A stretch of 64,000 nt of DNA from Thermoplasmata archaeon (GCA_020054475.1 JAHWGJ010000002.1:38100-102099); one strand, 5' to 3'. Positions 21,398-53,343 are shown, numbered from the stretch's first letter. A program made the numbers and translations. Notes: a model not told the origin generated them from the sequence alone.

Positions 21398-21691
21398 GTT
21401 AAATTCTCCGAGGTATAATATATTATAATAATTAATAAATTTTTTTAATAAATTAAGATTGATTATTTAATTTATTATAATTTTAAATAAATTATGAAAT
21501 TAATTTACTTTTTAAAAAAAAATTCATTTTTATAATATTGAATATCATTATATGGTTTATATGCTTTGAAAAATCAATACCATTTGTTTTGCTATATCAA
21601 AAATTACCTTAATTAATATATATAGCTAATTTTATTCAGTTTTTCATTATCCCCCGCCTTAGCTCAGTCTGGCTGGAGCGGCCGGCTGTAG

Positions 21692-21706
21692 ACTTTAATG
21701 GCCGTG
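21692..21706 (+). other. tRNA-Tyr intron at the canonical 37/38 position
   Basis: The extra 15 nt ACTTTAATGGCCGTG lie immediately 3' of anticodon-loop position 37. The boundary is ambiguous by 1 nt. Confidence 0.8.
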
Positions 21707-21722
21707 ACCGGCAGGTCCCCGG

Positions 21723-21742
21723 TTCAAATCCGGGAGGCGGGA
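21723..21742 (+). repeat. attL: 3' 20 nt of tRNA-Tyr, direct repeat of 38850-38869
   Basis: TTCAAATCCGGGAGGCGGGA is identical at both sites, and the flanking bases differ on both sides. Confidence 0.8.
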
Positions 21743-21784
21743 CTAAACCATAAGTATATATTATCACCCTTTTATTAGATATTG

Positions 21785-22990
21785 ATGAAAACAATATATA
21801 ACTACGAGCATAACCTGGAAAAAGCATTAAAAAACCTTGATTCAAAGAGATTATCTAAAAAAAACAAGAATCAAATAAAAGAGTTCATCTATTTTTTATC
21901 AGTTAACAAAGTAGGTAAATGCAGACAGTTGAAATATGTCTTCGCTTTGCAGAACATAGCAGAATGGCTTAAAATTGATTTTGAGAAAGCAACAAAGAAA
22001 GATATAGAATATATAATAAATAAAATGGAGAATATTAAGCAGTCAAATGGACAGCCTTTTAGTGAATGGTCTAAACATGACCACCGGGTAATAATCAAGA
22101 AATTCTATACATGGCTTAGAAACAAGGAAAATGATGATATAGACGAATGGGAGACACCTAAAGAAGTCAAATGGGTTAAAGCAAAAAAACCACGTAACTG
22201 TAACAAGCTCCCTTCAGATTTGTTAACCCCTCAGGATATAACTTTTCTTTCTGATAACTGTAAAAACCTTAGAGAAAAAGCTTTGATTCTTACATTATAC
22301 GAGAGTGGAGCGAGAATCGGAGAATTATTATCTTTAAAGATTAAAGATGTTGAGTTTGATGATTACGGAGCTATGCTTAATCTCTTTGGAAAGACAGGAT
22401 ACCGTAAGATCCGCATAGTCGGAAGTTCACCAGCTCTTAGTCAATGGCTGCAGAATGAACATCCTAAACGTGATGATAAAAACGCTTATCTTTTTTGTAA
22501 TATCAACCAGGGTAATGAGGGAACTTTACTTTCTTATGCCTCTGCTAAAAAGATTTTAAACAACCTTAAGAAACGCACTGATTTTAAGAAACCGCTTAAC
22601 CCTCATCATTTCCGGCACAGCAGAGCCTCAGAGCTTGCAGAGCATCTAACCGATAGCCAGAGATGTCATTACTTGGGTTGGCAACAGGGTTCTCAAATGG
22701 CTCGTATATATACACATATAGAAGATACTAATAGAATAATACTTGAATTGAATGGCCTTGTTAAAAAAGATAAAGATAAAACAGGTAAATTCTCAGAAGT
22801 GATTTGCCCACGTTGCAATATTAAAAATCCTTATGGTAGTAAGTTTTGTGGTCAATGTAGTATGGGATTAGATATTCATAGTATCGATGAATTTGAAAAA
22901 ACACGCAATCAAGCGTTGAAAACAATTGACAACAGCCAAAATATTGAAGCTATTGTTGAAATGGTAATGAAGAAATTAGAAAATAGATAA
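21785..22990 (+). CDS. tyrosine recombinase / phage-type integrase with C-terminal zinc ribbon
   Basis: About 401 aa. Catalytic blocks ESGARIGELLSLKIKD (Arg), HHFRHSRAS (His-x-x-Arg) and GSQMARIYTHI (Tyr). C-terminal CPRCN..CGQCS zinc ribbon. Confidence 0.9.
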   Translation: MKTIYNYEHNLEKALKNLDSKRLSKKNKNQIKEFIYFLSVNKVGKCRQLKYVFALQNIAEWLKIDFEKATKKDIEYIINKMENIKQSNGQPFSEWSKHDHRVIIKKFYTWLRNKENDDIDEWETPKEVKWVKAKKPRNCNKLPSDLLTPQDITFLSDNCKNLREKALILTLYESGARIGELLSLKIKDVEFDDYGAMLNLFGKTGYRKIRIVGSSPALSQWLQNEHPKRDDKNAYLFCNINQGNEGTLLSYASAKKILNNLKKRTDFKKPLNPHHFRHSRASELAEHLTDSQRCHYLGWQQGSQMARIYTHIEDTNRIILELNGLVKKDKDKTGKFSEVICPRCNIKNPYGSKFCGQCSMGLDIHSIDEFEKTRNQALKTIDNSQNIEAIVEMVMKKLENR

Positions 22991-23576: not shown

Positions 23577-24032
23577 ATCCATGATTGTTTTTGTTATGCC
23601 AGTTGAAGAGATTGAGAATAAGATGTATTTACTATGACTCCACATTACTTCGGAAGGTAGCTAAAATACGTTTCAAATTACACAATTTTGGGAAGAGGAA
23701 GATGATTTTGATAAACAAATGAAAGGATAAAGGAAGCGGTACCAAACTAGATACAGAAATTTCATCCAGTCTCCTGATTAGTTTTTGGGATTTTTAGAAT
23801 CTCCAATATATTACATTGCAAATTCCTATGTTCAAAAAACATTAACTATAGTACTACCGAGAAATACCCTAAAATCGCTATACCAGAAATCATTTGTTTA
23901 TTAAACTATACTTTTTTATCAATTCCGGCAGACAGCTTTAAAATAAAAATTAATTTTCAGGGTATTTTTAATCAACGAGACTGTCAGTCAAGGGGTTGAA
24001 AAACAGAAAAAAGAATAGAGAAAAAATGGTGA

Positions 24033-38243: not shown

Positions 38244-38265
38244 TAAAGGACAAGCAAATAGCATT

Positions 38266-38301
38266 TTGTCTCTCAGGAGGCTTCAAAACAAAGTTTTTTG
38301 T
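38266..38301 (+). repeat. island intergenic repeat, copy C (module 1), forming a 36-bp perfect inverted repeat with 40193-40228
   Basis: TTGTCTCTCAGGAGGCTTCAAAACAAAGTTTTTTGT is the exact reverse complement of 40193-40228. Confidence 0.85.
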
Positions 38302-38569
38302 GTTGAATGGATTTTATTTAATTAACAATAATAAGTTTTTTAATATATTCTGATAAAGGAGTAATGGAAGAATTTTAGTAAAAGCGAGGGAAAAAAGGAG
38401 AACAGTAGATAAGTAAAAAACCATTGTTACTGCCCCCTTTCTTCTATAATTATCGGCATCAAAATATAATATAAAAGGATTTCTATCAAAATCCTGTTTT
38501 CTCCTTATTAGTTTCAAGATATCTATTTTGTAAATATAATTATATATATCATTCAAATATGGAAATTTA

Positions 38570-38849: not shown

Positions 38850-38869
38850 TTCAAATCCGGGAGGCGGGA
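38850..38869 (+). repeat. attR: copy of the tRNA-Tyr 3' end
   Basis: TTCAAATCCGGGAGGCGGGA is identical to 21723-21742. Confidence 0.8.
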
Positions 38870-38934
38870 TATCTTTATAAAGAAAGTATCTAAAATATTA
38901 ATTATTATTAAAAGAATATCATTTTAATTAAAAA

Positions 38935-40008
38935 ATGAAAACTGAAAAAACAAAAGCTATAAAAATAGAATTAAAAGATGCGGAAAAAACACGTTTATAT
39001 CTGAAAGAAAAAAATATTTTAAAAAATAATTTAAAAATAAAAAAAGATGAAAATTACATATACCTACCTATAAGAAATAATATAAATAAAAATAAAGATT
39101 GCAATTATAATATTATAATAACGAATTTTGAGAAACAAAATAAGAAAATAAATTCTTATAAAGAATTATTATTAAGAAATAATAAAATAACATCAAAAGA
39201 AATTTTAAATAAATTACCAACTTCGTATGATATTATTGGAAAAATAATTCTTATAAAATTACAAGATGAACTAATAAAATATCAAAAAGAAATTGGAGAA
39301 TCCCTTCTAAAAGTAAATAATAATGTCAAAACAATATGTACTATAGAACCAGTAAAAGGAGAATTAAGGACAAGAAATATAAAAATCATATCTGGTGAAA
39401 AAAATACAAAAACAATACATAAAGAAAATGGAATAAAATATAATATTGATCTTAGAAAAATTTATTTCTCACCTAGACTCGCAACAGAAAGAATGAGAAT
39501 AACAAATTTAGTCAAACCAGAAGAAGTAATAGTTGACATGTTTACAGGATTAGCTCCTTTTTCAATAAATATTGCAAAATATGCAAATCCAAGGAAAATA
39601 TATGCAATTGATAAAAACAAATACGCAATAGAATATGCAAAGAAAAATATTAGAATTAACAATGTTCTAGATAAAATCGAAGTTATCCATTCTGATGCAA
39701 AAAAAGTTAATGATATTCTAAATAAAAAAAACGAAAAAGCTAATAGAATAATTATGAATCTACCTTTTTCTGCAAAATCTTTTTTACCATATGCCTTTAA
39801 AATATCAAAGGAAAAAATAATAATTCATTACTATGATATAATAAAGGAGGAAGATATAAATAATAGGATAAAAGAGCTGAAAAAAATAGCTAAAGTTAAT
39901 AACTATAAAATCATAAATTTCAATATTATAAAAATTAAGACATATTCGCCACGAGAATTTTATATATGTATAGACATTACTGCAAAAAAAAATATTATGC
40001 CGACGTAG
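38935..40008 (+). CDS. trm5: tRNA (guanine37-N1)-methyltransferase Trm5 / Met-10+ family
   Basis: 357 aa. SAM-MTase motifs VVDMFTGLAPFSI, IYAIDKNKYAIEYAKKN and IIMNLP, with the D2 domain pattern YDIIGKIILIK. The stop codon TAG lies inside the acceptor stem of tRNA-Thr. Confidence 0.85.
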   Translation: MKTEKTKAIKIELKDAEKTRLYLKEKNILKNNLKIKKDENYIYLPIRNNINKNKDCNYNIIITNFEKQNKKINSYKELLLRNNKITSKEILNKLPTSYDIIGKIILIKLQDELIKYQKEIGESLLKVNNNVKTICTIEPVKGELRTRNIKIISGEKNTKTIHKENGIKYNIDLRKIYFSPRLATERMRITNLVKPEEVIVDMFTGLAPFSINIAKYANPRKIYAIDKNKYAIEYAKKNIRINNVLDKIEVIHSDAKKVNDILNKKNEKANRIIMNLPFSAKSFLPYAFKISKEKIIIHYYDIIKEEDINNRIKELKKIAKVNNYKIINFNIIKIKTYSPREFYICIDITAKKNIMPT

Positions 40009-40072
40009 CTTAGACCGGTTGAGCGGCTGACTTGTAATCAGCAGGTCGAGGGTTCGAATCCCTCCGTCGGCT
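39999..40072 (+). tRNA. tRNA-Thr (anticodon UGU)
   Basis: Acceptor GCCGACG/CGTCGGC, anticodon stem GCTGA/TCAGC with loop CTTGTAA, T arm GAGGG-TTCGAAT-CCCTC. Confidence 0.9.
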
Positions 40073-40073
40073 T
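40057..40073 (+). repeat. attL2: 3' end of tRNA-Thr, direct repeat of 45726-45742
   Basis: AATCCCTCCGTCGGCTT is identical at both sites. Confidence 0.65.
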
Positions 40074-40192
40074 CCCTAAGTTCTTTTCCCATGTTGATTG
40101 CAACAAAAGTAACATTTCTGATTTGCGGCTTTGAACATAAATAAATATCAGATGATAAAGTTAAATTCAAAATACTAAAAATTGTAATCAAA

Positions 40193-40228
40193 ACAAAAAA
40201 CTTTGTTTTGAAGCCTCCTGAGAGACAA
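40193..40228 (-). repeat. island intergenic repeat, copy D (module 1), the inverted partner of 38266-38301
   Basis: The reverse complement equals TTGTCTCTCAGGAGGCTTCAAAACAAAGTTTTTTGT. Confidence 0.85.
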
Positions 40229-40464
40229 CCTTGTTATAAAAAATATTTTGGCAGAAATGCCAGCTGGAGGGGAGGAAGATGGGATGCTACCAGGGCTGGC
40301 ATGTCCCCCATATTATTCGTCGAGTTAAGGGAACATGGTGTTTTTAGTTTATATATGTAAAAAGTGGGTGGATGAAAGTATTTTATACTCAATTCGTAAT
40401 TAAAAAATAGAAGGAGGAAGAGAATAATTATAGGGAAACGTAGATTTTCTTTCTCCCATTTTCA

Positions 40465-41448
40465 CTATATTAGGAATTCTAGAATTGGAAATCGTTGAAT
40501 TAATCTTAATATCCAAGGATTGAAATCATTGATTGATTTGCTTCTTGGCATTGAAACAGATAACGGATCTGACCATTCGCTCTGAGCTCCATTACTATCT
40601 TTTGCTTTTACTCTGATCTCATAGGTTCCCTGTGAAGTCCATGAGTGAGATGTACTAACTGTTGCTCCAGATGCATAGTAACTTCCACTGTTATCATCCC
40701 ATTCATCAACAACATTGTCTCCATTCCAGTCCCAAGCATACTTGACTTTATCGCCATCTGGATCAGTTGTAGATGAGGAATATGTATATGACTTTCCTAT
40801 TTCTCCCGAAGTTGGGCCAGAAGGAGTACTTGGATTAAAAGGAGGAAAATTTCCACCATCATCAGATAACTTTGCAACAAAAACATCACTATATCTTTGG
40901 CTTTGGCTGGTTAGAGTGTATGGGCCAAAATCTGCAATACCACTGAAATATCCAGTTACTATTGTGGAGCCGTCCGAAAGCGTTACGATTGCCTGGCCTG
41001 CATCCTTATAATACATCCCACCTGCACGTTTCCCCCATGCGATAGTGCCGTCGGAATTGTACTTGGCCAAGAAAATATCGGTACTACCATCTGAAACCAG
41101 AACAGTTTCGGAATTTTCACCTTTCCCGAATGTCGCTGAACCACTGAAATATCCAGTTACTATTGTGGAGCCGTCCGAAAGCGTTACGATTCCCTGGCCT
41201 GCATCCTCAGACGTCCCACCTGCCCCTTTTGCCCATTGCCAGTCCCCGTTTTTATTTAATATATTACTTTCTCCTTCTTTATGTCTATTAAAAAACGATT
41301 TATAATCAGCAGTAGTTGAACTACTAGTTATACCTTTATAAATGGAAATATTGGATTTAACATCATTTAATTCTACACATCCATTTACTGAAAAAGCAGT
41401 CGCAATCAACAGCGTCAAAACAAAAATTCCAATAATTTTCTTCATCAT
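40465..41448 (-). CDS. secreted SBBP-like beta-propeller-repeat protein with the shared PKD-like/SMP tail module
   Basis: 327 aa. Signal peptide, duplicated GQ(G/A)IVTLSDGSTIVTGYFSG units, and C-terminus ..KYAWDWNGD..GTYEIRVKAKD..SEWSDPLSVSMPRSK..ILRLIQRFPILEFLI. Confidence 0.85.
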   Translation of the reverse strand: MMKKIIGIFVLTLLIATAFSVNGCVELNDVKSNISIYKGITSSSTTADYKSFFNRHKEGESNILNKNGDWQWAKGAGGTSEDAGQGIVTLSDGSTIVTGYFSGSATFGKGENSETVLVSDGSTDIFLAKYNSDGTIAWGKRAGGMYYKDAGQAIVTLSDGSTIVTGYFSGIADFGPYTLTSQSQRYSDVFVAKLSDDGGNFPPFNPSTPSGPTSGEIGKSYTYSSSTTDPDGDKVKYAWDWNGDNVVDEWDDNSGSYYASGATVSTSHSWTSQGTYEIRVKAKDSNGAQSEWSDPLSVSMPRSKSINDFNPWILRLIQRFPILEFLI

Positions 41449-41530
41449 TTTTATCTCCCTAACATAGGTTCCCCTGATTATTATAATGCAATCTTAATTT
41501 AAAACATTAACGCATGTAAACATGTGTTAT

Positions 41531-41606
41531 CGCAACATTTGTAGCATTATCACTTGGTGAATATGATGTAGTCATTCATCATATTTTGAAGCCTCTCGAG
41601 AAATAA
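41531..41606 (-). repeat. island intergenic repeat, copy E (full length)
   Basis: Reverse complement: GTTATTTCTCGAGAGGCTTCAAAATATGATGAATGACTACATCATATTCACCAAGTGATAATGCTACAAATGTTGCG. Confidence 0.8.
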
Positions 41607-41679
41607 CTTCTCATATAATATAAAGTGTGATTCTAAATTTCAACGAAATAAATTTAAACAAAACCAAAATGTCACCAAT

Positions 41680-42648
41680 ATGCTCAAATCTATACGATTA
41701 ATTGCTACCATTTCTAGGGCAGAGTTTATTTTACCTAATCTCGGCTCTCTAATCATGGGAGTTGCATGGGGGGTTACATCAGATATTAGTTTGACTAATT
41801 TGATTATTTTAATTATTTTATCTTTTTCAATTATCAATCTTAGCTCTGCAATTGGCGCCCAAATCAATACCCTCTCTGATTATGAGTTGGATTTGAAAGA
41901 TGATCGAAAGAAAAAACTTGTTCAATCTTTGGATTCCTTTGGAAAAAACCGTATGAAAGTCGTCTTACTGATTGAGTTTATTATCACTTTGATATTGGTC
42001 ATTTTATTCATGGTTCTCCAAAATAATCCAATCCTATTGTTGATGTGGGTTGTTGGAATTTCATTAGGGTGGATATATTCTGCTCCACCAGTTCGTTTAA
42101 AATCAAGATCTTGGCTTGCACCAGTATCATTAATACTTGTTCTTGGAATCTTTCCAGTTTTGTTTGCATATTTGACATTTACTTCAGTATTTCAACTATT
42201 CTTTCTTCTTGCTATTGCCGGGTTGGCTCTTACTATATATGGTGTGATTATACCAACAGAGATTAGAGATTACTTTGGAGACAAGGTGATGGATATTGAC
42301 ACAATGACTGTACATCTTGGTCTTGTTAAAGCATCTTTTACATGTATTGTTTTGATATGCCTCGGTGGAATTCTTTTTACTACAGCATTTCTCCTTGAAT
42401 GGATGAATGGCCCTCGACCATTCTTAAGTTTTTTACTTCTAATTATACCTATTTCAATTTTCTATGTTATCAGAAGTGTAAAGAAACTCTATTCCCTCTC
42501 CAAAGAGTACATTATATCGCAAGAAAATAATTCTTTGAAGGATCAGATAATAAACATATCTGCACACAATCCAAAGTGGATTATGATCATTACCCAAACT
42601 TATAGCATCCTATCTATTATTCTCCTTGTGAATAAATTTTTAATCTAA
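41680..42648 (+). CDS. UbiA-family membrane prenyltransferase (copy 2, divergent)
   Basis: 322 aa, polytopic. NTLSDYELD (N-x3-D-x3-D) and a second acidic motif RDYFGD. Confidence 0.75.
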   Translation: MLKSIRLIATISRAEFILPNLGSLIMGVAWGVTSDISLTNLIILIILSFSIINLSSAIGAQINTLSDYELDLKDDRKKKLVQSLDSFGKNRMKVVLLIEFIITLILVILFMVLQNNPILLLMWVVGISLGWIYSAPPVRLKSRSWLAPVSLILVLGIFPVLFAYLTFTSVFQLFFLLAIAGLALTIYGVIIPTEIRDYFGDKVMDIDTMTVHLGLVKASFTCIVLICLGGILFTTAFLLEWMNGPRPFLSFLLLIIPISIFYVIRSVKKLYSLSKEYIISQENNSLKDQIINISAHNPKWIMIITQTYSILSIILLVNKFLI

Positions 42649-42722
42649 TTATGAAACGGCATTATAAAATTTTTTTCTACTAAATTGAAATTGTGAATAG
42701 ATTCTTCTATAAAATAAAAATA

Positions 42723-42753
42723 TCATTATTACTTGCTGATAATGATGTCAACC
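42723..42753 (-). repeat. island intergenic repeat, copy G (module 2 fragment)
   Basis: Reverse complement: GGTTGACATCATTATCAGCAAGTAATAATGA. Confidence 0.6.
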
Positions 42754-42804
42754 TTCGTTTGTTGACTTAAATAGTTATAAATTCTTAACACATTCAATAA
42801 AACA

Positions 42805-43797
42805 ATGATTAATGTTAGAAACTTCTTTCCGAGATACTTTGACATATCAGAGGAAAACGGAATTGCAAGATATGTACAGTGTAAACACGTTTCTGTTAAT
42901 TTTAGTAAGTTAGAAACCACCGATTTTTTGTGGAAAAAACATGACACTGCCATTCAAAACATGAAGCTTTGTGATATTGAACCAGAAAAATCTCTATTAG
43001 ATCTTAAAATAGAGTTAGCATCTAGAATGTTTAGGGAATGTTGTTTCTGCGAAAGAAGATGTAAGGTTGATCGGACAAAAGAATCAGGGAATTGTGGAGT
43101 ACAACAACCTGCAATCGCATCTGAATTTTTACATCTTGGGGAAGAAAGCGTACTTATACCATCATATACTGTTTTTTTCTCAGGATGTACATTTCATTGC
43201 GTGTTTTGTCAGAACTGGGACATAAGTCAACGTAACGCAGGTATTTTTATTGAACCTGCAGTATTGGTAAAAATGATACGTGCAAGAAAAAATCAAGGTG
43301 CAAGAAATGTTAATTGGGTAGGTGGTGATCCTACACCCAACATTCTTTATATTCTTGAAACGTTGAAAAATTGTAATGTAAATATCCCTCAGATTTGGAA
43401 TTCAAATATGTATTGTTCAATGGAGACTATAAAACTTCTCAATGGTGTTATTGATTTGTATCTTACAGATTTTAAATATGGAAACGATGAATGTGCTCAA
43501 CGTCTATCAAAAGTTGATAATTACATGGACATTATCAAAAGAAATCACAGAATCGTAGAAAAAAATGGGGAGATGATTATACGTCATCTTGTAATGCCTA
43601 CCCATATTGAATGCTGTTCAAAATCAATACTGCAGTGGATCGCCGATAATATTTCAAATATTCCAGTCAACATCATGGGACAATACCGTCCAGATTATTT
43701 TGCAAAAAAATATCAAGACATCTCTTGCAGTGTATCATCAGAAGAAATTAGAACTGTTGAAGATTTTGCAAAAAAATTACAAATCATTTGTTTGTAG
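42805..43797 (+). CDS. radical SAM enzyme, PflX-like (COG1313, PFL-activase homologue)
   Basis: 330 aa with the CTFHCVFCQNWDIS CxxxCxxC cluster motif, preceded by the extra Cys cluster CCFCERRCKVDR..GNCG typical of PflX-type proteins. Confidence 0.85.
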   Translation: MINVRNFFPRYFDISEENGIARYVQCKHVSVNFSKLETTDFLWKKHDTAIQNMKLCDIEPEKSLLDLKIELASRMFRECCFCERRCKVDRTKESGNCGVQQPAIASEFLHLGEESVLIPSYTVFFSGCTFHCVFCQNWDISQRNAGIFIEPAVLVKMIRARKNQGARNVNWVGGDPTPNILYILETLKNCNVNIPQIWNSNMYCSMETIKLLNGVIDLYLTDFKYGNDECAQRLSKVDNYMDIIKRNHRIVEKNGEMIIRHLVMPTHIECCSKSILQWIADNISNIPVNIMGQYRPDYFAKKYQDISCSVSSEEIRTVEDFAKKLQIICL

Positions 43798-43850
43798 AAT
43801 TATTACTTGGGGGATATGATGGAAATGGATATAACAAATAGAATAATTGT

Positions 43851-45473
43851 TTACTCAAGATAGAAGAAAAACAATAACAATATTCCTCTAATATCTGCTA
43901 AAACCTTCGGCGCGTTATCTGCCCAAGCGGCACCTGTTATCTCAGTGTGGCCAAACCCTAATATTAAACGCGTTTTTCCAACTGTTATTTCTTGGTCGGG
44001 TTCAAGAGTTCCTATTATTAAGCCAGAGGATTGTCCTCCTAAGATAATGAAATCTCCATCAATTGTAATACTCCAGCTGACATTATATGCAACGTCATTT
44101 CCAATATTCTTTACGGTCATTTTCATTGGTGATAAATCACTTATAACAAGTACAGGTGTTGGTATTGTTTCATATGATGAAAAGTAAATATCATAATTAC
44201 CGTTTCTTAAATCGGTAAAAACAATTCCACTTTCACATATATCAATAGAACCCTTTTTACTAACAACTGTCCCATTTACATCATTTTTCCGCATCGCCTC
44301 ATTCCATGTAACACCAGCATCTTCAGATATTTTAAGGTAGAGATTCCCTTTTTTCACATAAGAACAATACACATTGTTACCTTGCATGTATACAGCAGGA
44401 GTACTAGCATTACTTTCAACAGTAGATACTTGCCAGTTGAACCCTGGTTCATATACTGCTGAGGTGTTACTCGATTTACATATAACATTTTCATCTTCAA
44501 CATACACAACACAAACCTTGTTTCCACTACCCGAAACATCTGGGTCTGTTCCGATTCCAAGATATTCACTAGGCATTACTTCAGGATCCCCATATTTCTC
44601 CATACCATTTTTTTGTCTTCCACTAGTAATAAGGCGCTCATTCATGACGTTTGTTTTTATACTGATTTTTGTTCCACTATCAAAATCAGTTTCGAAAACA
44701 AAAAAGAGTTGATTAGCATTTGAGTCCATTTCTAGTTGTGATGCTGGAGCGGATTGAAAAAATGAGTTACCATCGGAGTAGAAACCCCCCATCACTGGCG
44801 GAGGTTCAAAGTCAGGGTATGTATAGTATCCCAGGTTCAATGTCTGTAACAATCCATAGGTGTCTTCAGTTGTAAGTGATAAGAAGAAATTGTTCGTACA
44901 CGCACATGCACAATAAAAGTAATCTGTTCCACCTGAAATTCCATACCATAATGCCTCTGCAGCATTTGCGATATCTCCAGAGATAAAGGACATTTCATTG
45001 TTATAGATTTCTGCATTTGGGTCAATCATTGTAAGATACAGCAAATCATTAGGATAATTATATACAATATCCGGGTATTGTAGTAATCCTGTACCGCTGG
45101 AAAAGTTAATGGAGTCAAATAAGAATTGCTCATTCCATAAATAACCATTAGTAGAATACACAACAGGTATCTGACTTCTATTTAAACCGATTTCTTGTTC
45201 AAAAACGACAATAGAATGACCAAGATTATTTGTTGTCATTCTTGGGTGAAAATCATTTCCAATATTATTGGATATTAAAGTATTATCAACAAGACATTGT
45301 TGTCCCATAACATCATTTTTTATAGCTTTAATATTCTGTTGCCATGGGTCATCTATATTATCATCAACATATATGATATTATTAGAAGAAACTTCATAGG
45401 TGGAGACAAAAGGAAGTATACTTGAATGTAACAATAAAACAAATCCTAACATCAAGGAAATATTTTTCATCAT
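43851..45473 (-). CDS. secreted BNR/Asp-box repeat protein
   Basis: 540 aa. Signal peptide and one clear Asp-box SEDAGVTWNE. No PKD/SMP tail. Confidence 0.65.
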   Translation of the reverse strand: MMKNISLMLGFVLLLHSSILPFVSTYEVSSNNIIYVDDNIDDPWQQNIKAIKNDVMGQQCLVDNTLISNNIGNDFHPRMTTNNLGHSIVVFEQEIGLNRSQIPVVYSTNGYLWNEQFLFDSINFSSGTGLLQYPDIVYNYPNDLLYLTMIDPNAEIYNNEMSFISGDIANAAEALWYGISGGTDYFYCACACTNNFFLSLTTEDTYGLLQTLNLGYYTYPDFEPPPVMGGFYSDGNSFFQSAPASQLEMDSNANQLFFVFETDFDSGTKISIKTNVMNERLITSGRQKNGMEKYGDPEVMPSEYLGIGTDPDVSGSGNKVCVVYVEDENVICKSSNTSAVYEPGFNWQVSTVESNASTPAVYMQGNNVYCSYVKKGNLYLKISEDAGVTWNEAMRKNDVNGTVVSKKGSIDICESGIVFTDLRNGNYDIYFSSYETIPTPVLVISDLSPMKMTVKNIGNDVAYNVSWSITIDGDFIILGGQSSGLIIGTLEPDQEITVGKTRLILGFGHTEITGAAWADNAPKVLADIRGILLLFFFYLE

Positions 45474-45510
45474 TACCTCCCAATATAATATTAGATGTTC
45501 TGATATAAAA

Positions 45511-45572
45511 TCATTTGTAGCATTATTACTTGCTGATTATGATGTCAATTGATATGATTTTGAGAATTGTAC
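45511..45572 (-). repeat. island intergenic repeat, copy F (module 2 intact, module 1 degenerate)
   Basis: Reverse complement: GTACAATTCTCAAAATCATATCAATTGACATCATAATCAGCAAGTAATAATGCTACAAATGA. Confidence 0.7.
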
Positions 45573-45725
45573 AAATTCTAAAATAAAGTTATTAAAAATG
45601 AATGCTTGAGCAAAAAATATAATTTATAATACTATTATTTACTAATTATTTTGTATTTTTCTCCAAGAAATTATCAATAGTTAGTATATTATTAAAATAT
45701 TGAGGGATTTTAACCTAGACTCTGT

Positions 45726-45742
45726 AATCCCTCCGTCGGCTT
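45726..45742 (+). repeat. attR2: copy of the tRNA-Thr 3' end
   Basis: AATCCCTCCGTCGGCTT is identical to 40057-40073. Confidence 0.65.
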
Positions 45743-45795
45743 ATATCGCCCTTTTTTATAAAAAAATCAACACTACAAACCTTTTTTAATGAATT

Positions 45796-46518
45796 TTAAA
45801 TTTCATCTACACATACAGATATTGCAATCTTCAAGGCATCAATCATAGTTTCCAAGTCCATACCATTCTCTGGATCTTGAGAGGAAAGAAGAGGGACATG
45901 GATAAATCCTGCCTCTATCGAAAGATCATTTCTATCAATAAAATTTAGAACTCCGTAAAATACTTCATTGCAAATAAAGCTGCCAGCATTATAATTCTGT
46001 TCTGTAGATATATTCACTCTATTAATTTCACGAACAATATTTTTTGTAGGAAGAGGAGATAATAACAAAAATGGACCACGAGGATCTATTCTACGAAATA
46101 AAAATACATTCCCTTCATTATCAGGTTTAATACATGATTTTAAATTTATTCCTATTTTTTCAACATGTATCGAGTTTATCATTCCAGCACCCATGCTTAT
46201 TACAATGTCTGGATTGTAACCCATGATTCCCTGAGTTACAAAATCTACAGCTTCACCCCAAATTACAGGCGCCGTAATACCAAAGACTATAGCTCCATTT
46301 ATTGTTTCACCATTAAGATTCTCTGCAATCAATTGAGAAGGATTAGGAGTATACTTAGCCCAAGATTCAAAACCAGTGATCAAAACAGTTTTTTCATAGC
46401 AACAATCAACAATATTTACTAAATTAATATCATCTTCAAATGATCCAACAGGAATTACATATGACCCTATCAAAAGAATTGAAAAACATAAGACTATTAC
46501 AATTCTATTAAATCTCAT
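45796..46518 (-). CDS. pcp: pyroglutamyl (pyrrolidone-carboxylate) peptidase I, peptidase C15, with N-terminal signal-like segment
   Basis: VLITGFE.W....NPS, catalytic-region blocks HVEKIGIN (Glu), AGSFICNEVFY (Cys) and GFIHVP (His). N-terminus MRFNRIVIVLCFSILLIGSYVIPVGS is hydrophobic. Confidence 0.88.
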   Translation of the reverse strand: MRFNRIVIVLCFSILLIGSYVIPVGSFEDDINLVNIVDCCYEKTVLITGFESWAKYTPNPSQLIAENLNGETINGAIVFGITAPVIWGEAVDFVTQGIMGYNPDIVISMGAGMINSIHVEKIGINLKSCIKPDNEGNVFLFRRIDPRGPFLLLSPLPTKNIVREINRVNISTEQNYNAGSFICNEVFYGVLNFIDRNDLSIEAGFIHVPLLSSQDPENGMDLETMIDALKIAISVCVDEI

Positions 46519-46826: not shown

Positions 46827-48917
46827 TTATTTCGAAAATAATTTATTTTTTCTAAAAATGAATAATATAATACCTGCAATAATAAATATAAATAACTCAA
46901 AACCTGGAAAACCTGATGGTTCAACTATTGTTATAACAGCAGATGACATATCAGTATCACCATTATTATCTTCTACTGTTAATTCAACTATATATTTCCC
47001 TGCCTCAATATATTTATGTTCAATAATTTCTCCATAACCCATTGATCCATCACCAAAAGACCAAGTATAATTCACTATTATACCATCTGAGTCAGAACTA
47101 TCTGAAGCTATAAATGTAATCATTTCATCAGTTGTTCCATTAATTGGAATTTCATGTATCGCAATTGGCGCTTTATTTACATAATCACCTATTGTTACAA
47201 AAATTATTTCAGAATCAGTTGTTCCATCATTATCTATAACCGTTAAAGTAACTTTATATGAACCTTTATTATTATAAACATGCTCTGGTGACTCAGCTAA
47301 AATTTCACTAGACTCATCACCAAAATTCCATCTATAAAAATCAATTTCACCATCAGTATCATAGCTATCTGAACCATCAAAACCTATAATCTGACCCGGA
47401 TCGGAGCTGTAAGGTCCACCAGCATCAGCCACCGGTGGCTCATTATCAGGAGGAGTAGTTTTTGTAAAAAAAATCCAAGGATCTGATTTATTATCCTGTC
47501 TACTATCATTTACAATTGCATACCATGCATAAGTTCTATTAAAACCAAGTGTTAATTGTCCAACTGCAACATCACCAGTATTAACTCTTTTATCTGTATC
47601 TATTAATTCATCATTTTCTGCATTATAAAAATAAACTGTAAGTTCATCACTATCATCATCTTCTACTTCAACTTCAAGCGTTATTCTTAAACCAACCCCT
47701 GTTTCCAAATCCTCTGGAGATGGATTAAAAGGTTTTTTAGGTGGTTTCAAAAAATCACCTAACGGAAACATATCAGTAACGCCATATTTTTCATAAAAAA
47801 TATCACCGATTCCATCAAGATCTAGGTCTAAATCGTTATAGTCACTCCAATAATTCCCCTTTTCCTCATAATACCATTGATTATTTCCAAAATCTTGAGC
47901 AGATTTACCATTATCTAAAAATCTATTTAAAGATATAATATTATTTTTACTGCTTGCAAGAGCATTAATGCCAGATCCTGATGAGTTAGATATATTATTA
48001 TTTTTAATATTGTTATTTGATCCTTTTATTTCGATAGCGCCGATATTTGATTCGAATTTATTTTCATTTATTTCACAGTCTGATGAATCCAAATAAATAC
48101 AATCTTCATTATACATGAATTCATTTTGTTCAATTATGCTATCATCACTATTTTTAAGATATATTCCATAAAAAGTAGTATTTGAAATCGTATTATTTGT
48201 GATATTCACATCTTTACTTTTATCTATTTTTAATCCATAAGTTGAATTTGAAATAGTATTCCCATATATTCTACCATTTGAGTTAACAAATGAAATAGCA
48301 TATTCAGAACAATTGGAAATTGTGTTAATAACTATATCATTTGTATCAGAATTTTCAATATTAATCCCTCTGCTCACATTTTCTATGTGATTTCCACTTA
48401 TGATATTTCCACTTGAATCAGGGTTAATATAGATTGCTGAGCTATTTGTCTGATTAAATGTGTTACCTTGAATTATCACATTATCTGAATTTATATAAAT
48501 TAGACTTCCTATTGGCGATGATTTTATGTTTTCAATATCACTTATAACAAAATCGATTAATTCAACATGGTCAGCTGTAATTTCAATAGTATATCGCTGA
48601 TTAATATTACTATCAATAATGCTGGCAGGTCCCTCTGTGCCTTCTATGCTACCCCAAATTTTTAGAGTTTTATCAATTTCAAGGGTTTCCTCATATAAAC
48701 CACCAAAAACATAAATTGTATCTCCTTCCTCAGCTATATCAATCGCATATTGTATACTAGCATATGGTTTTTCAGCAGTTCCCTCTCGAATTCCATGATA
48801 GTTTACATCTACATATATTTCATTACCTTCTGCCCGACAATTTTCATTAAATATTATATTAAAACTTCCAAAAATCATTGAAAAAAATATTAACAATATC
48901 ACTATTTTTGATTTCAT
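46827..48917 (-). CDS. secreted right-handed beta-helix (NosD/PbH1-like) protein with two PKD domains and PGF-CTERM
   Basis: 696 aa. Many N-x-I-x-x-N beta-helix rungs, two PKD units (..YRWNFGDES..GSYKVTLTVIDNDG.. and ..YTWSFGDGS..GKYIVELTVEDNNG..), and terminal SGFPGFELFIFIIAGIILFIFRKNK. Confidence 0.85.
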   Translation of the reverse strand: MKSKIVILLIFFSMIFGSFNIIFNENCRAEGNEIYVDVNYHGIREGTAEKPYASIQYAIDIAEEGDTIYVFGGLYEETLEIDKTLKIWGSIEGTEGPASIIDSNINQRYTIEITADHVELIDFVISDIENIKSSPIGSLIYINSDNVIIQGNTFNQTNSSAIYINPDSSGNIISGNHIENVSRGINIENSDTNDIVINTISNCSEYAISFVNSNGRIYGNTISNSTYGLKIDKSKDVNITNNTISNTTFYGIYLKNSDDSIIEQNEFMYNEDCIYLDSSDCEINENKFESNIGAIEIKGSNNNIKNNNISNSSGSGINALASSKNNIISLNRFLDNGKSAQDFGNNQWYYEEKGNYWSDYNDLDLDLDGIGDIFYEKYGVTDMFPLGDFLKPPKKPFNPSPEDLETGVGLRITLEVEVEDDDSDELTVYFYNAENDELIDTDKRVNTGDVAVGQLTLGFNRTYAWYAIVNDSRQDNKSDPWIFFTKTTPPDNEPPVADAGGPYSSDPGQIIGFDGSDSYDTDGEIDFYRWNFGDESSEILAESPEHVYNNKGSYKVTLTVIDNDGTTDSEIIFVTIGDYVNKAPIAIHEIPINGTTDEMITFIASDSSDSDGIIVNYTWSFGDGSMGYGEIIEHKYIEAGKYIVELTVEDNNGDTDMSSAVITIVEPSGFPGFELFIFIIAGIILFIFRKNKLFSK

Positions 48918-49056
48918 TTATATCCATCATCCTCTAATCTATCTTGTTTTTTGAAATGTATTGACATAATTTATACTTTTCTTAAAAAAGATAATAATTT
49001 TGTAAGATTAATTTTATATATGTAATTTTATTACTCCGAATGTTAAGGTGACAAAA

Positions 49057-49356
49057 ATGACATACGTTATATTTGAAGTTAAAACAGAAAACATAGCTAA
49101 AATTAATGATTTATTAAAAGATGATTTAGTCAGTAGACAAAGTATACTTACTAGGGATTCAAGTTCTCTTAATATTGAAAAGGATGTATCTTATTTAAAA
49201 ATTGAAGGAAGTACTGAAGGTATCAAAAAAGCAGAGAAACTTGCAAAAGAATTTGAATTTAAAAAACTTAGCGTTAAAGATGCTGCAGAAGTAAATAAAA
49301 AAATTGAGGAGCAGGAGAATTCCGCTGCTGATGGAATGGGAATGATTTTTGGTTAA
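49057..49356 (+). CDS. small protein with a ribosomal-stalk-like C-terminal tail
   Basis: About 99 aa, starting at ATG 49057 (AAGGTGA RBS). It ends EEQENSAADGMGMIFG, compared with the L12/P1 tail [13 protein letters not shown] in this same window. Confidence 0.6.
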   Translation: MTYVIFEVKTENIAKINDLLKDDLVSRQSILTRDSSSLNIEKDVSYLKIEGSTEGIKKAEKLAKEFEFKKLSVKDAAEVNKKIEEQENSAADGMGMIFG

Positions 49357-50475: not shown

Positions 50476-53343
50476 ATGAGTGAAACGTTAATTGGTATCT
50501 CTTCTGATTATCTATATCTATATAATCAACAGCCAAAATCTGTATCAGATTATCATAAACCTTATTTTCTAGCTTTTACTCCGCAAGAAAAAAATATAAT
50601 TAATGCTAGAAAAGAATTGATAAGCAAATGGAGGAATAATAATTCAAGTGATAATATTTTTTCCAAAATTGAGGATATTGGAGAAATTGAAAAATATAGG
50701 AGTTTCTGGGAATTTAATAAAACTTGGGATGTCTTTAAGGTTTATACAATAAAATCATATCTTGTCCCAGAGGTCAGTGATTATTTATTTTTTAATTATG
50801 ATTTTTATACAGCTGAGCATGACATACCTTATCATCAAAGATCACTTATTGATTTAGCATCAGAGGATAAAATATGGTTATTTGATACTAATGGAAAAAA
50901 GGAAACAATAAAGTGTTTAATTTATGATATTGAAACAACACAATTTGATCTTTCAAAAACAAATATCCCTATTGATATAATTGGTTATACTGATTTTAAT
51001 ATAGATTTTAAATCTTCTAAGGACCTTGATGTTGAAGAGTTTAGTTTTGATATTATTGATTGTCCCGTTCATTCTGAAGATATTGATATTACTCAACTTA
51101 TTTCACGTAATTTAGATGAAGAAATTGAAAATCTATATAAATTTTGTAAATTACTTAAAAATTATCATATTATTTCGGGGCATAATATAGCTGGTTTTGA
51201 TAATATTCAGATACATAATAGAGTGAAATGGATTTTATCTAATCAAAAATCACGATTAAGTAATGATGAATTGAAAATTTTTAATGAATTTATTAATATT
51301 TATAGCCGGGTTGATAAATCATTTCATTTTGGTGTTGGATCAGAAGTTGTAAATTTTTATCCTAGTTCTTTTGACACTTATCAAGCTACAAGAAAATTTT
51401 ATCCTTTTTTAGATTCATTTGGTCTTAAAGCAGTTGCTCCTTTTATTGGTGTTGGTGTAAAAGATAGGTTGATTCTAACACCTTCTCAGATTAAAATTGA
51501 TAATCGAACTTTGAAATATAATAAACAAGATGTTATCGAACAAAGAGGTGTTACATTAAATCTTATACAGCAAGCTTTACCTTTATCTTTTACTACCTGT
51601 ATGACTTTTGATAATCTATTATCATCTGGTGCGGTAAACATGTGGGATCATATGGCAATGATTAGAGGATCTTTACAGAAGAAAATAATGCCTCCGATAT
51701 GTAGACCTTTTTCAATTTCAAAAACTTTATTACATAATTTTAATGATATTGATACTAAAGAAAAAATAATCACTGAAGGAAGGAATAATAGAGAGCAGCT
51801 TTCTAAGGAATTTGTAAGGGTTTTAAAATATGGTGAGGAAATGCCTGATTGGGTTAAATACCCGTATGTCATCTATAATGTAAATTCTAAAGATATTGAT
51901 GATAGATTAAATTACCATATGCCTGGTGGAATGACAATTAAGCCTGATAAAGATACTGAATCTCATTTTATTCCTTGGTTTAATCTTATAGTAGCTGATG
52001 TTGGAGCTATGTATCCAACTATTCTTAAAGCAATGAATATTGGTGCAGATACAGTTCAAATTTGTCCTAATCCTGATGAATCTAATGAATTAATCTGGTT
52101 GAAAAAATTACCTAGAAAATTTTTAGAAAGTAATTTTTGTAATTATTCAGATATAAGTGAGCAAGATTCATTTGCTGATAAAGGATATAAATTAGATATC
52201 ATAATTGATAATAAACCTGGTGTAATAAATTGTGCAATGACTGGTATTATGAGTATGATATCAAAAGTTAAAAAGGAACTTAAGGAAACCAAAAAAAGTG
52301 GTGATAAATCTGAAATAGATAGATTAAAAATGATGTATCAAAGTATTAAAGGTGCACGTAACGCTGGAACTCATGGAATTCTAGCGGCTCCAAATGTCTC
52401 TGGTAGACAATTTAACCTCTGGGGAGCAGCAGCTATTACAACTAAAGGTCAAATGATACTTGCAGATACACTTGATTATCTTGAAAAAAAGGACATTAGA
52501 GTAGTATATGGAGATACTGATGGCATATATTTAGGATGCTCACGATCAATGGGTAATTTACCTGATTTTTCAAATGCACTTAATATTGTTATCAAAGATA
52601 ATAAGGAGGATTGGTTATCAAATCCAGAATATGTTCTATCTGCAATAAAGGAGTGCAACAAAAGATGGCAGACAGAATTAAATTATCCTGATTTTGAATT
52701 AGAACCAGAAATTCATGATTGTATGATTTTTGTTAAACATAAAAATTATTTAATATTTGATGAAAAAAACGGTACAATTGAAATGACTACTAAAGGTAAT
52801 AATTTCAAAGGATCTGATAAAGCTAATATTGCAAGAAAAATACTTAGAAAAATAATGATTAATGTACTAAAAGAAAACCCTAACTGGATTGATGAGAAAA
52901 AGGCGAGAAATGACATTAAAAAAAGTATAACAAATAATACGAAAAAAATTCTTTTAGATTTTGATTTATCAAAAGTTGAGATTGATGATTTAACGATAAT
53001 TCAATCTGTTAAACCCTCAAATCAATATAAGAAAAATCAGGATGGTTCATTATCAACTTTTGGTAAGAGGGCTGTTGCTTTAGAAAAACTTTTAAACAAG
53101 CCTATTAAATCAAGAATAAAAATAAAATTTGTTATTACAAAGAATCATCTTCCTGGTATTTCAAATCCTTCAAAAAGTGGTGTGAAACCAATTGATTATA
53201 TGTATCCAATAGAGTTATTAAAGAATGTAAAAGATATTGATTTAAAATGGTATAAAAAAATGATTGAAAACTATATCCAAGGTGCTTTTGGCCTTCATGA
53301 TATTGAAGTTACTGAGCAGAAGGGATTAGATGCTTGGATGTAA
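50476..53343 (+). CDS. polB: family B DNA polymerase
   Basis: 955 aa.
- Exo I: YDIETT.
- Exo II: NIAGFD.
- Exo III: YNKQD.
- Motif A: DVGAMYPT.
- Motif B (divergent): KGARNAGTHG.
- Motif C: YGDTDG. Confidence 0.9.
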   Translation: MSETLIGISSDYLYLYNQQPKSVSDYHKPYFLAFTPQEKNIINARKELISKWRNNNSSDNIFSKIEDIGEIEKYRSFWEFNKTWDVFKVYTIKSYLVPEVSDYLFFNYDFYTAEHDIPYHQRSLIDLASEDKIWLFDTNGKKETIKCLIYDIETTQFDLSKTNIPIDIIGYTDFNIDFKSSKDLDVEEFSFDIIDCPVHSEDIDITQLISRNLDEEIENLYKFCKLLKNYHIISGHNIAGFDNIQIHNRVKWILSNQKSRLSNDELKIFNEFINIYSRVDKSFHFGVGSEVVNFYPSSFDTYQATRKFYPFLDSFGLKAVAPFIGVGVKDRLILTPSQIKIDNRTLKYNKQDVIEQRGVTLNLIQQALPLSFTTCMTFDNLLSSGAVNMWDHMAMIRGSLQKKIMPPICRPFSISKTLLHNFNDIDTKEKIITEGRNNREQLSKEFVRVLKYGEEMPDWVKYPYVIYNVNSKDIDDRLNYHMPGGMTIKPDKDTESHFIPWFNLIVADVGAMYPTILKAMNIGADTVQICPNPDESNELIWLKKLPRKFLESNFCNYSDISEQDSFADKGYKLDIIIDNKPGVINCAMTGIMSMISKVKKELKETKKSGDKSEIDRLKMMYQSIKGARNAGTHGILAAPNVSGRQFNLWGAAAITTKGQMILADTLDYLEKKDIRVVYGDTDGIYLGCSRSMGNLPDFSNALNIVIKDNKEDWLSNPEYVLSAIKECNKRWQTELNYPDFELEPEIHDCMIFVKHKNYLIFDEKNGTIEMTTKGNNFKGSDKANIARKILRKIMINVLKENPNWIDEKKARNDIKKSITNNTKKILLDFDLSKVEIDDLTIIQSVKPSNQYKKNQDGSLSTFGKRAVALEKLLNKPIKSRIKIKFVITKNHLPGISNPSKSGVKPIDYMYPIELLKNVKDIDLKWYKKMIENYIQGAFGLHDIEVTEQKGLDAWM

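Follow-up and report, generated by a model that had tools for sequence, protein, structure and literature searches.

A probable att-flanked, recombinase-less islet at a tRNA-Thr gene of a sediment Thermoplasmata archaeon, with an interior of repeat-delimited single-gene units

In a 64,000-nt stretch of a Thermoplasmata archaeon genome (GCA_020054475.1, JAHWGJ010000002.1:38100-102099; hereafter the window), a 5.7-kb islet lies between the 3' end of a tRNA-Thr(TGT) gene and a displaced copy of its last 17 nt. With a probability of about 0.6, we read this islet as a recombinase-less element flanked by attachment (att) sites at a tRNA-Thr insertion hotspot, similar to the cis-mobilizable elements (CIMEs) of Firmicutes, whose interior is a patchwork of repeat-delimited cassettes. 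An original prediction had described the region as an integrase-less insertion with cargo related to that of an element in the neighboring tRNA-Tyr gene, and had suggested either the decay of a sibling element or a satellite mobilized in trans. The evidence presented here favors a non-autonomous, remodeled remnant. The source is a metagenome-assembled genome (MAG) of an uncultured sediment archaeon (G000; 1.68 Mb, 46 contigs, 72% complete, coding fraction 85% by our own open reading frame (ORF) call), in which the contig carrying the islet is continuous over 112 kb. Coordinates without a contig label are window positions; C-numbers denote contigs of G000, G-numbers other genomes, and L-numbers loci or contigs used for comparison. 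Synteny at the site was compared in 12 relatives, gene presence in 40, the att arms in 118 genomes of the order, and radical S-adenosylmethionine (SAM) loci in 80 species.

The 17-mer AATCCCTCCGTCGGCTT is perfect at both 40057-40073 and 45726-45742, as predicted, and the two copies form a unique pair in the whole MAG. No further copy was found in the window at up to two mismatches, where 100 shuffles gave a chance expectation of 0, in the whole 1.68-Mb MAG at up to one mismatch, or, in degenerate form, in the 39-49.5 kb interval at up to five mismatches; a search for older, degraded att remnants from attR to the NosD gene was likewise negative. A chance match or an assembly artefact has in its favor just the shortness of the repeat and the origin of the sequence in a MAG contig, and we give this explanation almost no weight: the pair is unique with none expected, it coincides with a synteny break and a shift in composition, and the contig is unbroken.

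Both repeats are accompanied by arms. The 63-nt arm beside attL has its counterpart after the tRNA-Thr(CGT) gene of the congener G001, which carries the identical 17-nt core and whose contig stops 230 nt after the arm; this combination of core and arm occurs in 2 of the 118 genomes of the order, G000 and G001. At the opposite end, the 25 nt preceding the distal 17-mer bear a modest likeness, by eye, to the arm GGTNTTAAACYTAACTTTTAG, which is found ahead of the tRNA 3' fragments that close other G000 islands at their distal side (tRNA-Thr-GGT, tRNA-Asp, tRNA-Leu and others). The two arms fit site-specific integration by a recombinase that would recognize the T-loop and the 3' part of the acceptor of the tRNA. 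We infer that the outer structure is best explained by one such integration at tRNA-Thr. A circular DNA with an attP site, containing a 17-bp core that matches the tRNA-Thr 3' end of the TGT and CGT isoacceptors of the genus, would have been integrated by a tyrosine recombinase, which would have rebuilt the tRNA end as attL with its 63-nt arm and left the displaced copy as attR. The predicted empty attB site would read ...GGTTCGAATCCCTCCGTCGGCTT joined directly to ATATCGCCC, i.e., the tRNA-Thr end followed by ATATCGCCC, and the predicted attP junction of the circle would read ...GACTCTGT, AATCCCTCCGTCGGCTT and CCCTAAGTTC in succession.

The TGT and CGT genes differ at 6 of 74 aligned positions and have the last 17 nt and the ~63-nt downstream flank in common, and homologous recombination between them could have moved DNA from downstream of CGT, possibly an island, to the TGT locus. 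We consider this very improbable, as it would not by itself yield a displaced 3' fragment 5.7 kb away and the order and orientation of tRNA-Tyr, Trm5 and tRNA-Thr are unchanged; the tRNA-Thr(CGT) gene is not in the G000 assembly.

Comparison with relatives supports a true insertion, as originally proposed. The Trm5 gene (38935-40008) lies upstream of tRNA-Thr(TGT), and related members of the family and of the order keep the arrangement tRNA-Tyr, Trm5, tRNA-Thr, with Trm5 at 40-58% identity. Downstream, synteny continues with orthologues of NosD/PKD (46827-48917), 49048-49356, a histone-deacetylase-like gene and a family-B DNA polymerase gene. None of the four islet genes has a counterpart at the tRNA-Thr site in any of the 12 relatives. 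Between tRNA-Thr and NosD, four genomes, some of them from another family of the order, have 4-77 nt, five have 0.3-1.0 kb and three have 2.8-11.7 kb. Because the shortest gaps span families, the ancestral state was likely direct adjacency of tRNA-Thr and NosD. In G018, from another genus, the same tRNA-Thr is followed by a 1.1-kb insert (L049, 13125-14324) with one ORF for a 215-aa membrane protein and no integrase, bounded by a ~38-nt repeat made up of the tRNA end and its downstream flank. This insert and the variable gaps suggest that the tRNA-Thr site is a recurrent insertion hotspot. The GC content of the islet is 33.7% versus 28.2% for the genome, at the 97th percentile among windows of the same size; we do not take this as proof of foreign origin, since a relocated native gene in the islet, described below, likewise has 33% GC.

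The absence of a recombinase, also claimed originally, held up in every search. A six-frame scan with PF00589 detected 13 tyrosine recombinases genome-wide and none between the 17-nt repeats, and tblastn with all 13 against 40000-45800 gave a best E value of 0.07, i.e., no integrase fragments. Pfam assigned no family to ten small islet ORFs, and PHROGs revealed no mobility or virion function and no viral or plasmid hallmark genes in the islet. A split integrase (intN/intC) of the type found in Sulfolobus spindle-shaped viruses (SSV), or pieces of an integrase pseudogene, could be rejected, as the non-coding ends of the islet (390 and 250 nt, a mosaic of repeats) are too short and have no similarity to integrases. 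In the 12 relatives, too, the 10-15 kb following tRNA-Thr contain no integrase homologue. The islet is non-autonomous: with no recombinase gene between the repeats, it cannot excise by itself.

The interior of the islet consists of four single-gene units with predicted promoters, separated by copies of an intergenic repeat, B, that all point one way, sometimes together with a hairpin and a second repeat, A (Table 1). Contigs from other samples reveal where these units come apart. L191 is 97.4% identical to the UbiA unit (41553-42748), with 50 of 60 positions matching in its first 60 nt, the composite of B, hairpin and A. Its homology to the islet ends right after B2, and the next gene encodes an Rce1/CPBP-like protease rather than the radical-SAM enzyme. 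Two contigs from two samples, L192 and L193, are 95.7% identical to the radical-SAM unit (42748-43797). Their homology starts at the base where that of L191 ends and stops at the stop codon, at the start of B3. Upstream of the unit, L192 is 95% identical to G000:C44:26343-26532 up to the B copy of that locus and then diverges. In L194 (89% identical), the radical-SAM gene is bracketed by two B copies and lies between Flavodoxin_5 and SnoaL genes. The breakpoints thus fall at repeat B, and these junctions, with other neighbors in each case, indicate that the islet interior was put together from single-gene units that are independent of one another and meet at B. Recombination at the repeats probably shuffles such units between islands; it may be homologous, as in the PeSL regulatory cassettes of T4-type phages, or site-specific, as in integrons. 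Extended duplications inside G000 with B at their ends lent no more than weak, anecdotal support.

Table 1. Features of the tRNA-Thr islet and its borders (window positions)
Feature	Position	Strand	Evidence or remark
tRNA-Thr(TGT), putative integration target	39999..40072	+	ARAGORN; Rfam tRNA 70.1 bits
attL core, 17-nt direct repeat within tRNA 3' end	40057..40073	+	exact-repeat search
Conserved arm beside attL	40074..40136	+	~75% identical to the 63 nt after tRNA-Thr(CGT) in congener G001
Repeat A	40188..40228	-	GUCUC-UCAG-GAGGC hairpin, then CAAAAC..GUUUUUUG; at least 17 copies at 93-100% identity
GC-rich, structured-looking non-coding element	40248..40382	+	no same-strand downstream gene; paralogues in G000
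Secreted protein, beta-propeller-like head and PKD/SMP-tail	40465..41448	-	Pfam PKD; end ...SMPRSKS...
Composite spacer	41525..41607	+	B1 23-mer 41546-41568, then hairpin, then A-like motif
UbiA-family prenyltransferase	41680..42648	+	Pfam UbiA
Repeat B2	42725..42747	+	UbiA/radical-SAM unit junction at 42747/42748
PflA/PflX-type radical-SAM enzyme	42805..43797	+	sole detected copy in the genome
Degenerate repeat B3	43778..43822	+	overlaps radical-SAM stop codon
Secreted 540-aa protein, one Asp-box, CARDB-like C-terminus ('BNR')	43851..45473	-	Asp-box SEDAGVTW; weak Pfam CARDB
Candidate promoter/5' untranslated region module abutting B4	45474..45548	+	B4 23-mer 45522-45544; read on - strand, TATA box, then GGGAGGTAATG
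Arm beside attR, GAGGGATTTTAACCTAGACTCTGT	45700..45725	+	loose likeness to arms before tRNA 3' fragments in other islands
attR core, displaced 17-nt copy of tRNA-Thr 3' end	45726..45742	+	exact-repeat search

One of the four units holds a gene that belongs to the host. Of 40 relatives, 30 have one copy of the radical-SAM orthologue, with an identity of 52-69%, a range like that of Trm5 and the other syntenic genes compared. Typically it lies just downstream of a gene for a metallo-beta-lactamase (MBL)-fold protein: the neighborhood gA(MBL)-rSAM-gB/gC, where rSAM is the radical-SAM gene, was found in 29 of 80 species, and the neighbors in those 29 are orthologues of the G000 genes at C6:26967-30422. 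At this place, 52 kb from the islet, G000 retains nothing but a 27-nt spacer, and G005, the closest other genus, keeps only a C-terminal fragment of the radical-SAM gene. From the single-copy orthologues, the conserved locus and the 27-nt spacer, it follows that a conserved host gene moved into the islet. As this is the only copy detected in G000, the islet is more likely fixed than actively mobile.

The other units have different histories. Over 716 nt, the PKD-gene head and G005:C97 share 89% nucleotide identity, and the UbiA protein is at most 30% identical to anything in the 40 relatives; it is 62-88% identical to hundreds of metagenome proteins, including some from MAGs labeled Thermoplasmatota and Bathyarchaeia. 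Judged from these comparisons, the UbiA gene and the PKD-gene head look horizontally acquired. Homologues of the UbiA gene usually adjoin genes for secreted, PKD-bearing C25, C1 or M14 peptidases, or Rce1-like, rhomboid or ICMT genes, a neighborhood that hints at a pathway for lipid modification or processing of surface proteins. In L185-L190, for example, homologues at 64-88% identity lie by secreted PKD peptidases, and some by genes for an Rce1-like CAAX protease, an ICMT/PEMT methyltransferase or a rhomboid protein. We rejected the idea that the UbiA and radical-SAM genes are a functional pair, because none of the 80 radical-SAM loci in other species adjoins this UbiA gene and the neighbors of UbiA homologues are the peptidase, Rce1-like, rhomboid or ICMT genes named above. 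For the 540-aa protein, relatives form a large family in uncultured archaea, and PF13088 (BNR_2) is present in some of them. The gene content given in the original prediction was correct for the PKD/SMP-tail, UbiA and PflX-type radical-SAM proteins; the 'BNR' label amounts to a single Asp-box with a weak CARDB match.

An active satellite or miniature integrative element, mobilized in trans by one of the 13 recombinases of G000 or by that of an incoming element specific for the tRNA-Thr core, would account for the identity of the two 17-nt cores and for an attL arm kept across two species and two tRNA-Thr isoacceptors, and tyrosine recombinases are indeed numerous in the MAG. However, neither the MAG nor the 118 genomes of the order contain an element with matching arms, save the one contig end of G001, and no integrase occupies the site in the 12 relatives. 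The cargo proteins have no matches in viral contigs, no related viral contigs were found, and the islet has no viral or plasmid hallmarks. Even between stretches of DNA at 95-97% identity, the islet interior does not stay together, and its radical-SAM gene, present once per genome in most relatives, is the only copy detected in G000. We therefore regard an active satellite as unlikely. The sole gene copy, the lack of an element with matching arms and the unconserved interior make an actively mobile satellite less likely than a fixed remnant, and the relocated radical-SAM gene, together with UbiA and radical-SAM units in other contexts, argues against any coherent element or satellite.

Two elements do sit in adjacent tRNA genes, as originally described. 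The first comprises an intron-containing tRNA-Tyr (21653-21742), an integrase gene (21782-22990) and a 20-nt repeat that occurs again at 38852-38871, and the islet lies 1.1 kb from its attR. Their proposed kinship was not borne out by closer comparison. The two UbiA genes (41680 and 37218) show no similarity to one another at an E value of 1e-6, the att arms differ, the repeats point the opposite way in the tRNA-Tyr element, and the PKD-tail domain (more than 50 copies in G000) and repeats A and B occur genome-wide. Because the common features belong to all G000 islands, the sibling idea is unsupported.

Repeat B (consensus ATTATTACTTGCTGATTATGATG) is often extended at its 5' side by CATTTGTAGC and is followed by a hairpin. 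At up to three mismatches, G000 has 69 copies on 24 contigs, all of them intergenic and, within clusters, pointing one way (12 of 12 on C34, 17 of 17 on C44). Twelve copies each were found in G001 and in G005, one in G008 and none in the 37 others; the repeat is absent from viral contigs. The islet has the four copies originally counted, at 41546, 42725, 43799 (degenerate) and 45522; the genome-wide distribution does not bear out their description as island-specific. In at least eight genes, B lies on the opposite strand directly upstream of a conserved TATA box, 5' untranslated region (5'UTR), ribosome-binding site and signal-peptide start.

Three simpler roles for repeat B were considered. 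It is not a plain promoter element, given that 13 of 67 copies lie between convergent gene ends and its orientation is independent of its neighbors, nor a coding C-terminus (ending in FVALLLADYDGDG before a stop codon), given in-frame upstream ORFs of 0-73 codons. A role as operator of the tandem winged-helix-turn-helix (wHTH; AsnC-type) regulators of the islands is unsupported, as these occur in 19 of 40 relatives, all of one family, irrespective of B, and not in G001, which has B.

Part of B also belongs to a ~75-nt module with a TATA box, 5'UTR and GGGAGGTAATG that, with a signal-peptide start MKNKSII..., heads at least eight genes. Besides the copy next to B4 (45474-45511), the module is found at C21:37549, C44:38972, C44:30763, C30:91851, C30:57964, C10:11061 and C1:10303. 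The gene behind the C21 copy, the sole one checked, has no tblastn match to the 540-aa protein. The module looks like a portable leader for expression and secretion, to judge by its predicted signals.

Repeat A has the core TTGTCTCTCAGGAGGCTTC (28 copies), usually 7-100 nt past a same-strand stop codon. It runs into CAAAACAAAGTTTTTTG and has a T-run, and a hairpin that depends on G-U pairs is possible on the sense strand only; the repeat looks like a putative 3'-end or terminator element. The copy at 38263-38309 (+) is 97.6% identical over 41 nt to the inverted copy near attL, and the pair brackets a 1.9-kb host segment, attR(Tyr)-Trm5-tRNA-Thr-attL(Thr), which has the same orientation as in relatives. 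Such an inverted pair could mediate inversion of the segment.

The GC-rich element between repeat A and the PKD gene has two paralogues, C44:4583-4719 (80% identity) and C30:157192-157350, each followed by a gene on the + strand; the two genes encode a threonine-aldolase-like protein and a PaaK/F390-synthetase-like ligase. The three copies (~100-135 nt) have a compensatory change in one helix (TGCCAGC/GCTGGCA versus TACCAGC/GCTGGTA) and an invariant TTATTCGTCGAGTTA box. No Rfam family matched the element, and RNAalifold on the three copies returned no covarying pair.

Several observations weigh against a single integration followed by remodeling: (i) Islands also contain arms followed by tRNA fragments in their interior, namely at 23921-23937 (tRNA-Tyr element) and at G000:C44:45040-45340, so a fragment need not mark the outer end of incoming DNA. 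(ii) The repeats run contrary to those of five further tRNA islands, of which the tRNA-Tyr element is one. When the tRNA is on the + strand, those five have B on the - strand and A on the + strand, and the tRNA-Thr islet is reversed, a polarity that a simple single integration does not explain. (iii) A pyroglutamyl-peptidase gene (45796-46518), which is not at the site in the 12 relatives, intervenes between attR and the first syntenic gene, NosD, so that conserved DNA does not begin precisely at attR. (iv) Neither an empty site nor an excised circle turned up, nor did an intact sibling, and exact-pattern scans of metagenome and viral collections for the empty attB, attP and the attL arm gave 0 matches. 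(v) The closest relatives of G000 are just 55-68% identical in core proteins, and the age of the insertion is not datable for that reason; the single genome of the same genus, G001, does not have this locus. (vi) A cognate integrase, or another copy of the radical-SAM gene, may lie in the part of the genome that the 72%-complete MAG does not cover.

Some of these observations suit a different history, in which B cassettes accreted in place and the 17-mer is a circulating module of arm and tRNA fragment or the trace of an older, unrelated integration. The module junctions at B, the tRNA-fragment modules inside islands, including an array of five tRNA-end-like fragments, and the peptidase gene outside attR, likewise missing from the site in relatives, would all be expected. 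On the other hand, the fragment matches exactly the adjacent tRNA and nothing else in the genome, and the 63-nt arm is also found beside the other tRNA-Thr with the same core, as integration predicts for attL. Accretion in place is thus a minor but real possibility, and we retain one site-specific integration at tRNA-Thr as the more probable origin of the islet borders.

The array just mentioned packs five different tRNA-3'-end-like sequences into the 300 nt of C44:45040-45340. Two match the tRNA-Asp and tRNA-Leu-CAA genes of G000, three have no matching gene in the MAG, and some are preceded by a TTAAACYTAACTTTTAG arm. The 3' ends of tRNA-Thr-GGT, tRNA-Asp and tRNA-Leu-CAA recur elsewhere in G000, and their contigs have no PF00589 match. 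Within the tRNA-Tyr element, 23921-23937 is an arm plus a tRNA-like fragment, AATTCCGGCAGACAGCT, 2.2 kb from its tRNA, which suggests that this element is itself composite. The pyroglutamyl peptidase has an N-terminal hydrophobic segment, and G008 contains DNA 64% identical to its gene, ~91 kb from Trm5; the gene may be a second one relocated to the hotspot. Farther downstream, the family-B DNA polymerase gene (50476-53343, compared with loci L045-L048) is uninterrupted in G000, G005, G022, G033 and G030; in G014, G002, G017 and G015, an additional 0.6-1.3 kb of DNA interrupts the orthologue at residue 632, probably reflecting presence or absence of an intein.

Among known systems, the islet resembles the CIMEs of Firmicutes, which have lost their integration and transfer genes and kept attL and attR (ICEberg 2.0, PMC6323972). 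In CIMEs, the integrase of a related autonomous element recognizes these att sites, which permits accretion and mobilization; for the islet, mobilization after accretion with an incoming element would be hypothetical. It is likewise flanked by att sites from site-specific integration and has no genes for integration, excision or transfer. It differs in being archaeal, in having no cognate autonomous element in the MAG or the 118 genomes of the order, and in its interior, a repeat-delimited patchwork of single genes that includes a relocated host gene.

Degenerate integrated elements of Sulfolobus have reportedly been described by She and colleagues. Unlike the products of SSV-type integration, the islet has borders without an integrase-like coding sequence running into the att cores. 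The cryptic integrated elements (CIEs) of Thaumarchaeota carry an integrase by definition (PMC6563490), and PYG1-type islands have a tRNA fragment as attR (PMC9897764). The islet is like archaeal tRNA-integrated elements in its direct repeat of the tRNA 3' end, with a complete tRNA at one side and a fragment at the other, and in a site that is empty of the element in relatives. It falls outside the CIE definition (Krupovic 2019; pNOB8-type) because it lacks an integrase, and it differs from archaeal integrated elements in being small (5.7 kb) and in carrying one gene that was relocated from elsewhere in the host.

For the interior, one parallel is found in the PeSL cassettes of T4-type phages, which consist of an early promoter and a stem-loop terminator, mediate modular shuffling and form mini-circles (PMC2839356). 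The short intergenic units of the islet similarly combine a terminator-like stem-loop (A or hairpin) with a promoter-proximal B by TATA boxes. They lie on either side of individual accessory genes, and they are the points where homology among close relatives ends. Here, however, the genome is cellular and archaeal rather than that of a phage, the promoter and terminator roles are predicted from sequence, and neither one-way polarity over tens of kb nor capture of a host gene has been described for PeSLs.

One-way repeats between single ORFs that are found in different contexts also recall integrons with attC sites of the Vibrio VCR type. In contrast to integrons, no IntI or attI lies beside the islet array; the nearest integrase is that of the tRNA-Tyr element, 17 kb away, which scores 108.7 bits (cut-off 220) with the NCBIfam XerA/integron-integrase model and 41.9 (cut-off 265) with the integron-integrase model. 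By inspection, repeat B (ATTATTACTTGCTGATTATGATG) is non-palindromic and has no R''/R' boxes and no GTTRRRY partner, and the units of the islet carry their own predicted promoters and lie in either orientation.

These comparisons lead to a tentative proposal, which we think may well be wrong: uncultured sediment Thermoplasmata could have a system that shuffles cassettes, with repeats B and A as its junction sites, and that would move single, promoter-bearing genes between islands. If so, the system would even pull genes out of conserved host operons, such as the gA-rSAM pair, and would act on a within-species time scale, given 95-97% identical DNA with different neighbors, leaving arrays that point one way. 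Its outcome would be integron-like and its design PeSL-like, yet it would belong to a cellular archaeon and lack both IntI and attC. The driver might be one of the many zinc-ribbon tyrosine recombinases, or recombination at short homologies, and the tRNA-Thr islet would be one such array parked at an att site.

An integrase-less island with tRNA repeats would by itself be an ordinary integration footprint. The added value of this islet lies in its interior, in which a conserved host gene sits outside its operon, with its own predicted promoter, between one-way repeats. This cautions that genes found between att repeats are not all 'cargo' of one mobile element, and it makes repeat-mediated cassette traffic in archaeal islands testable.

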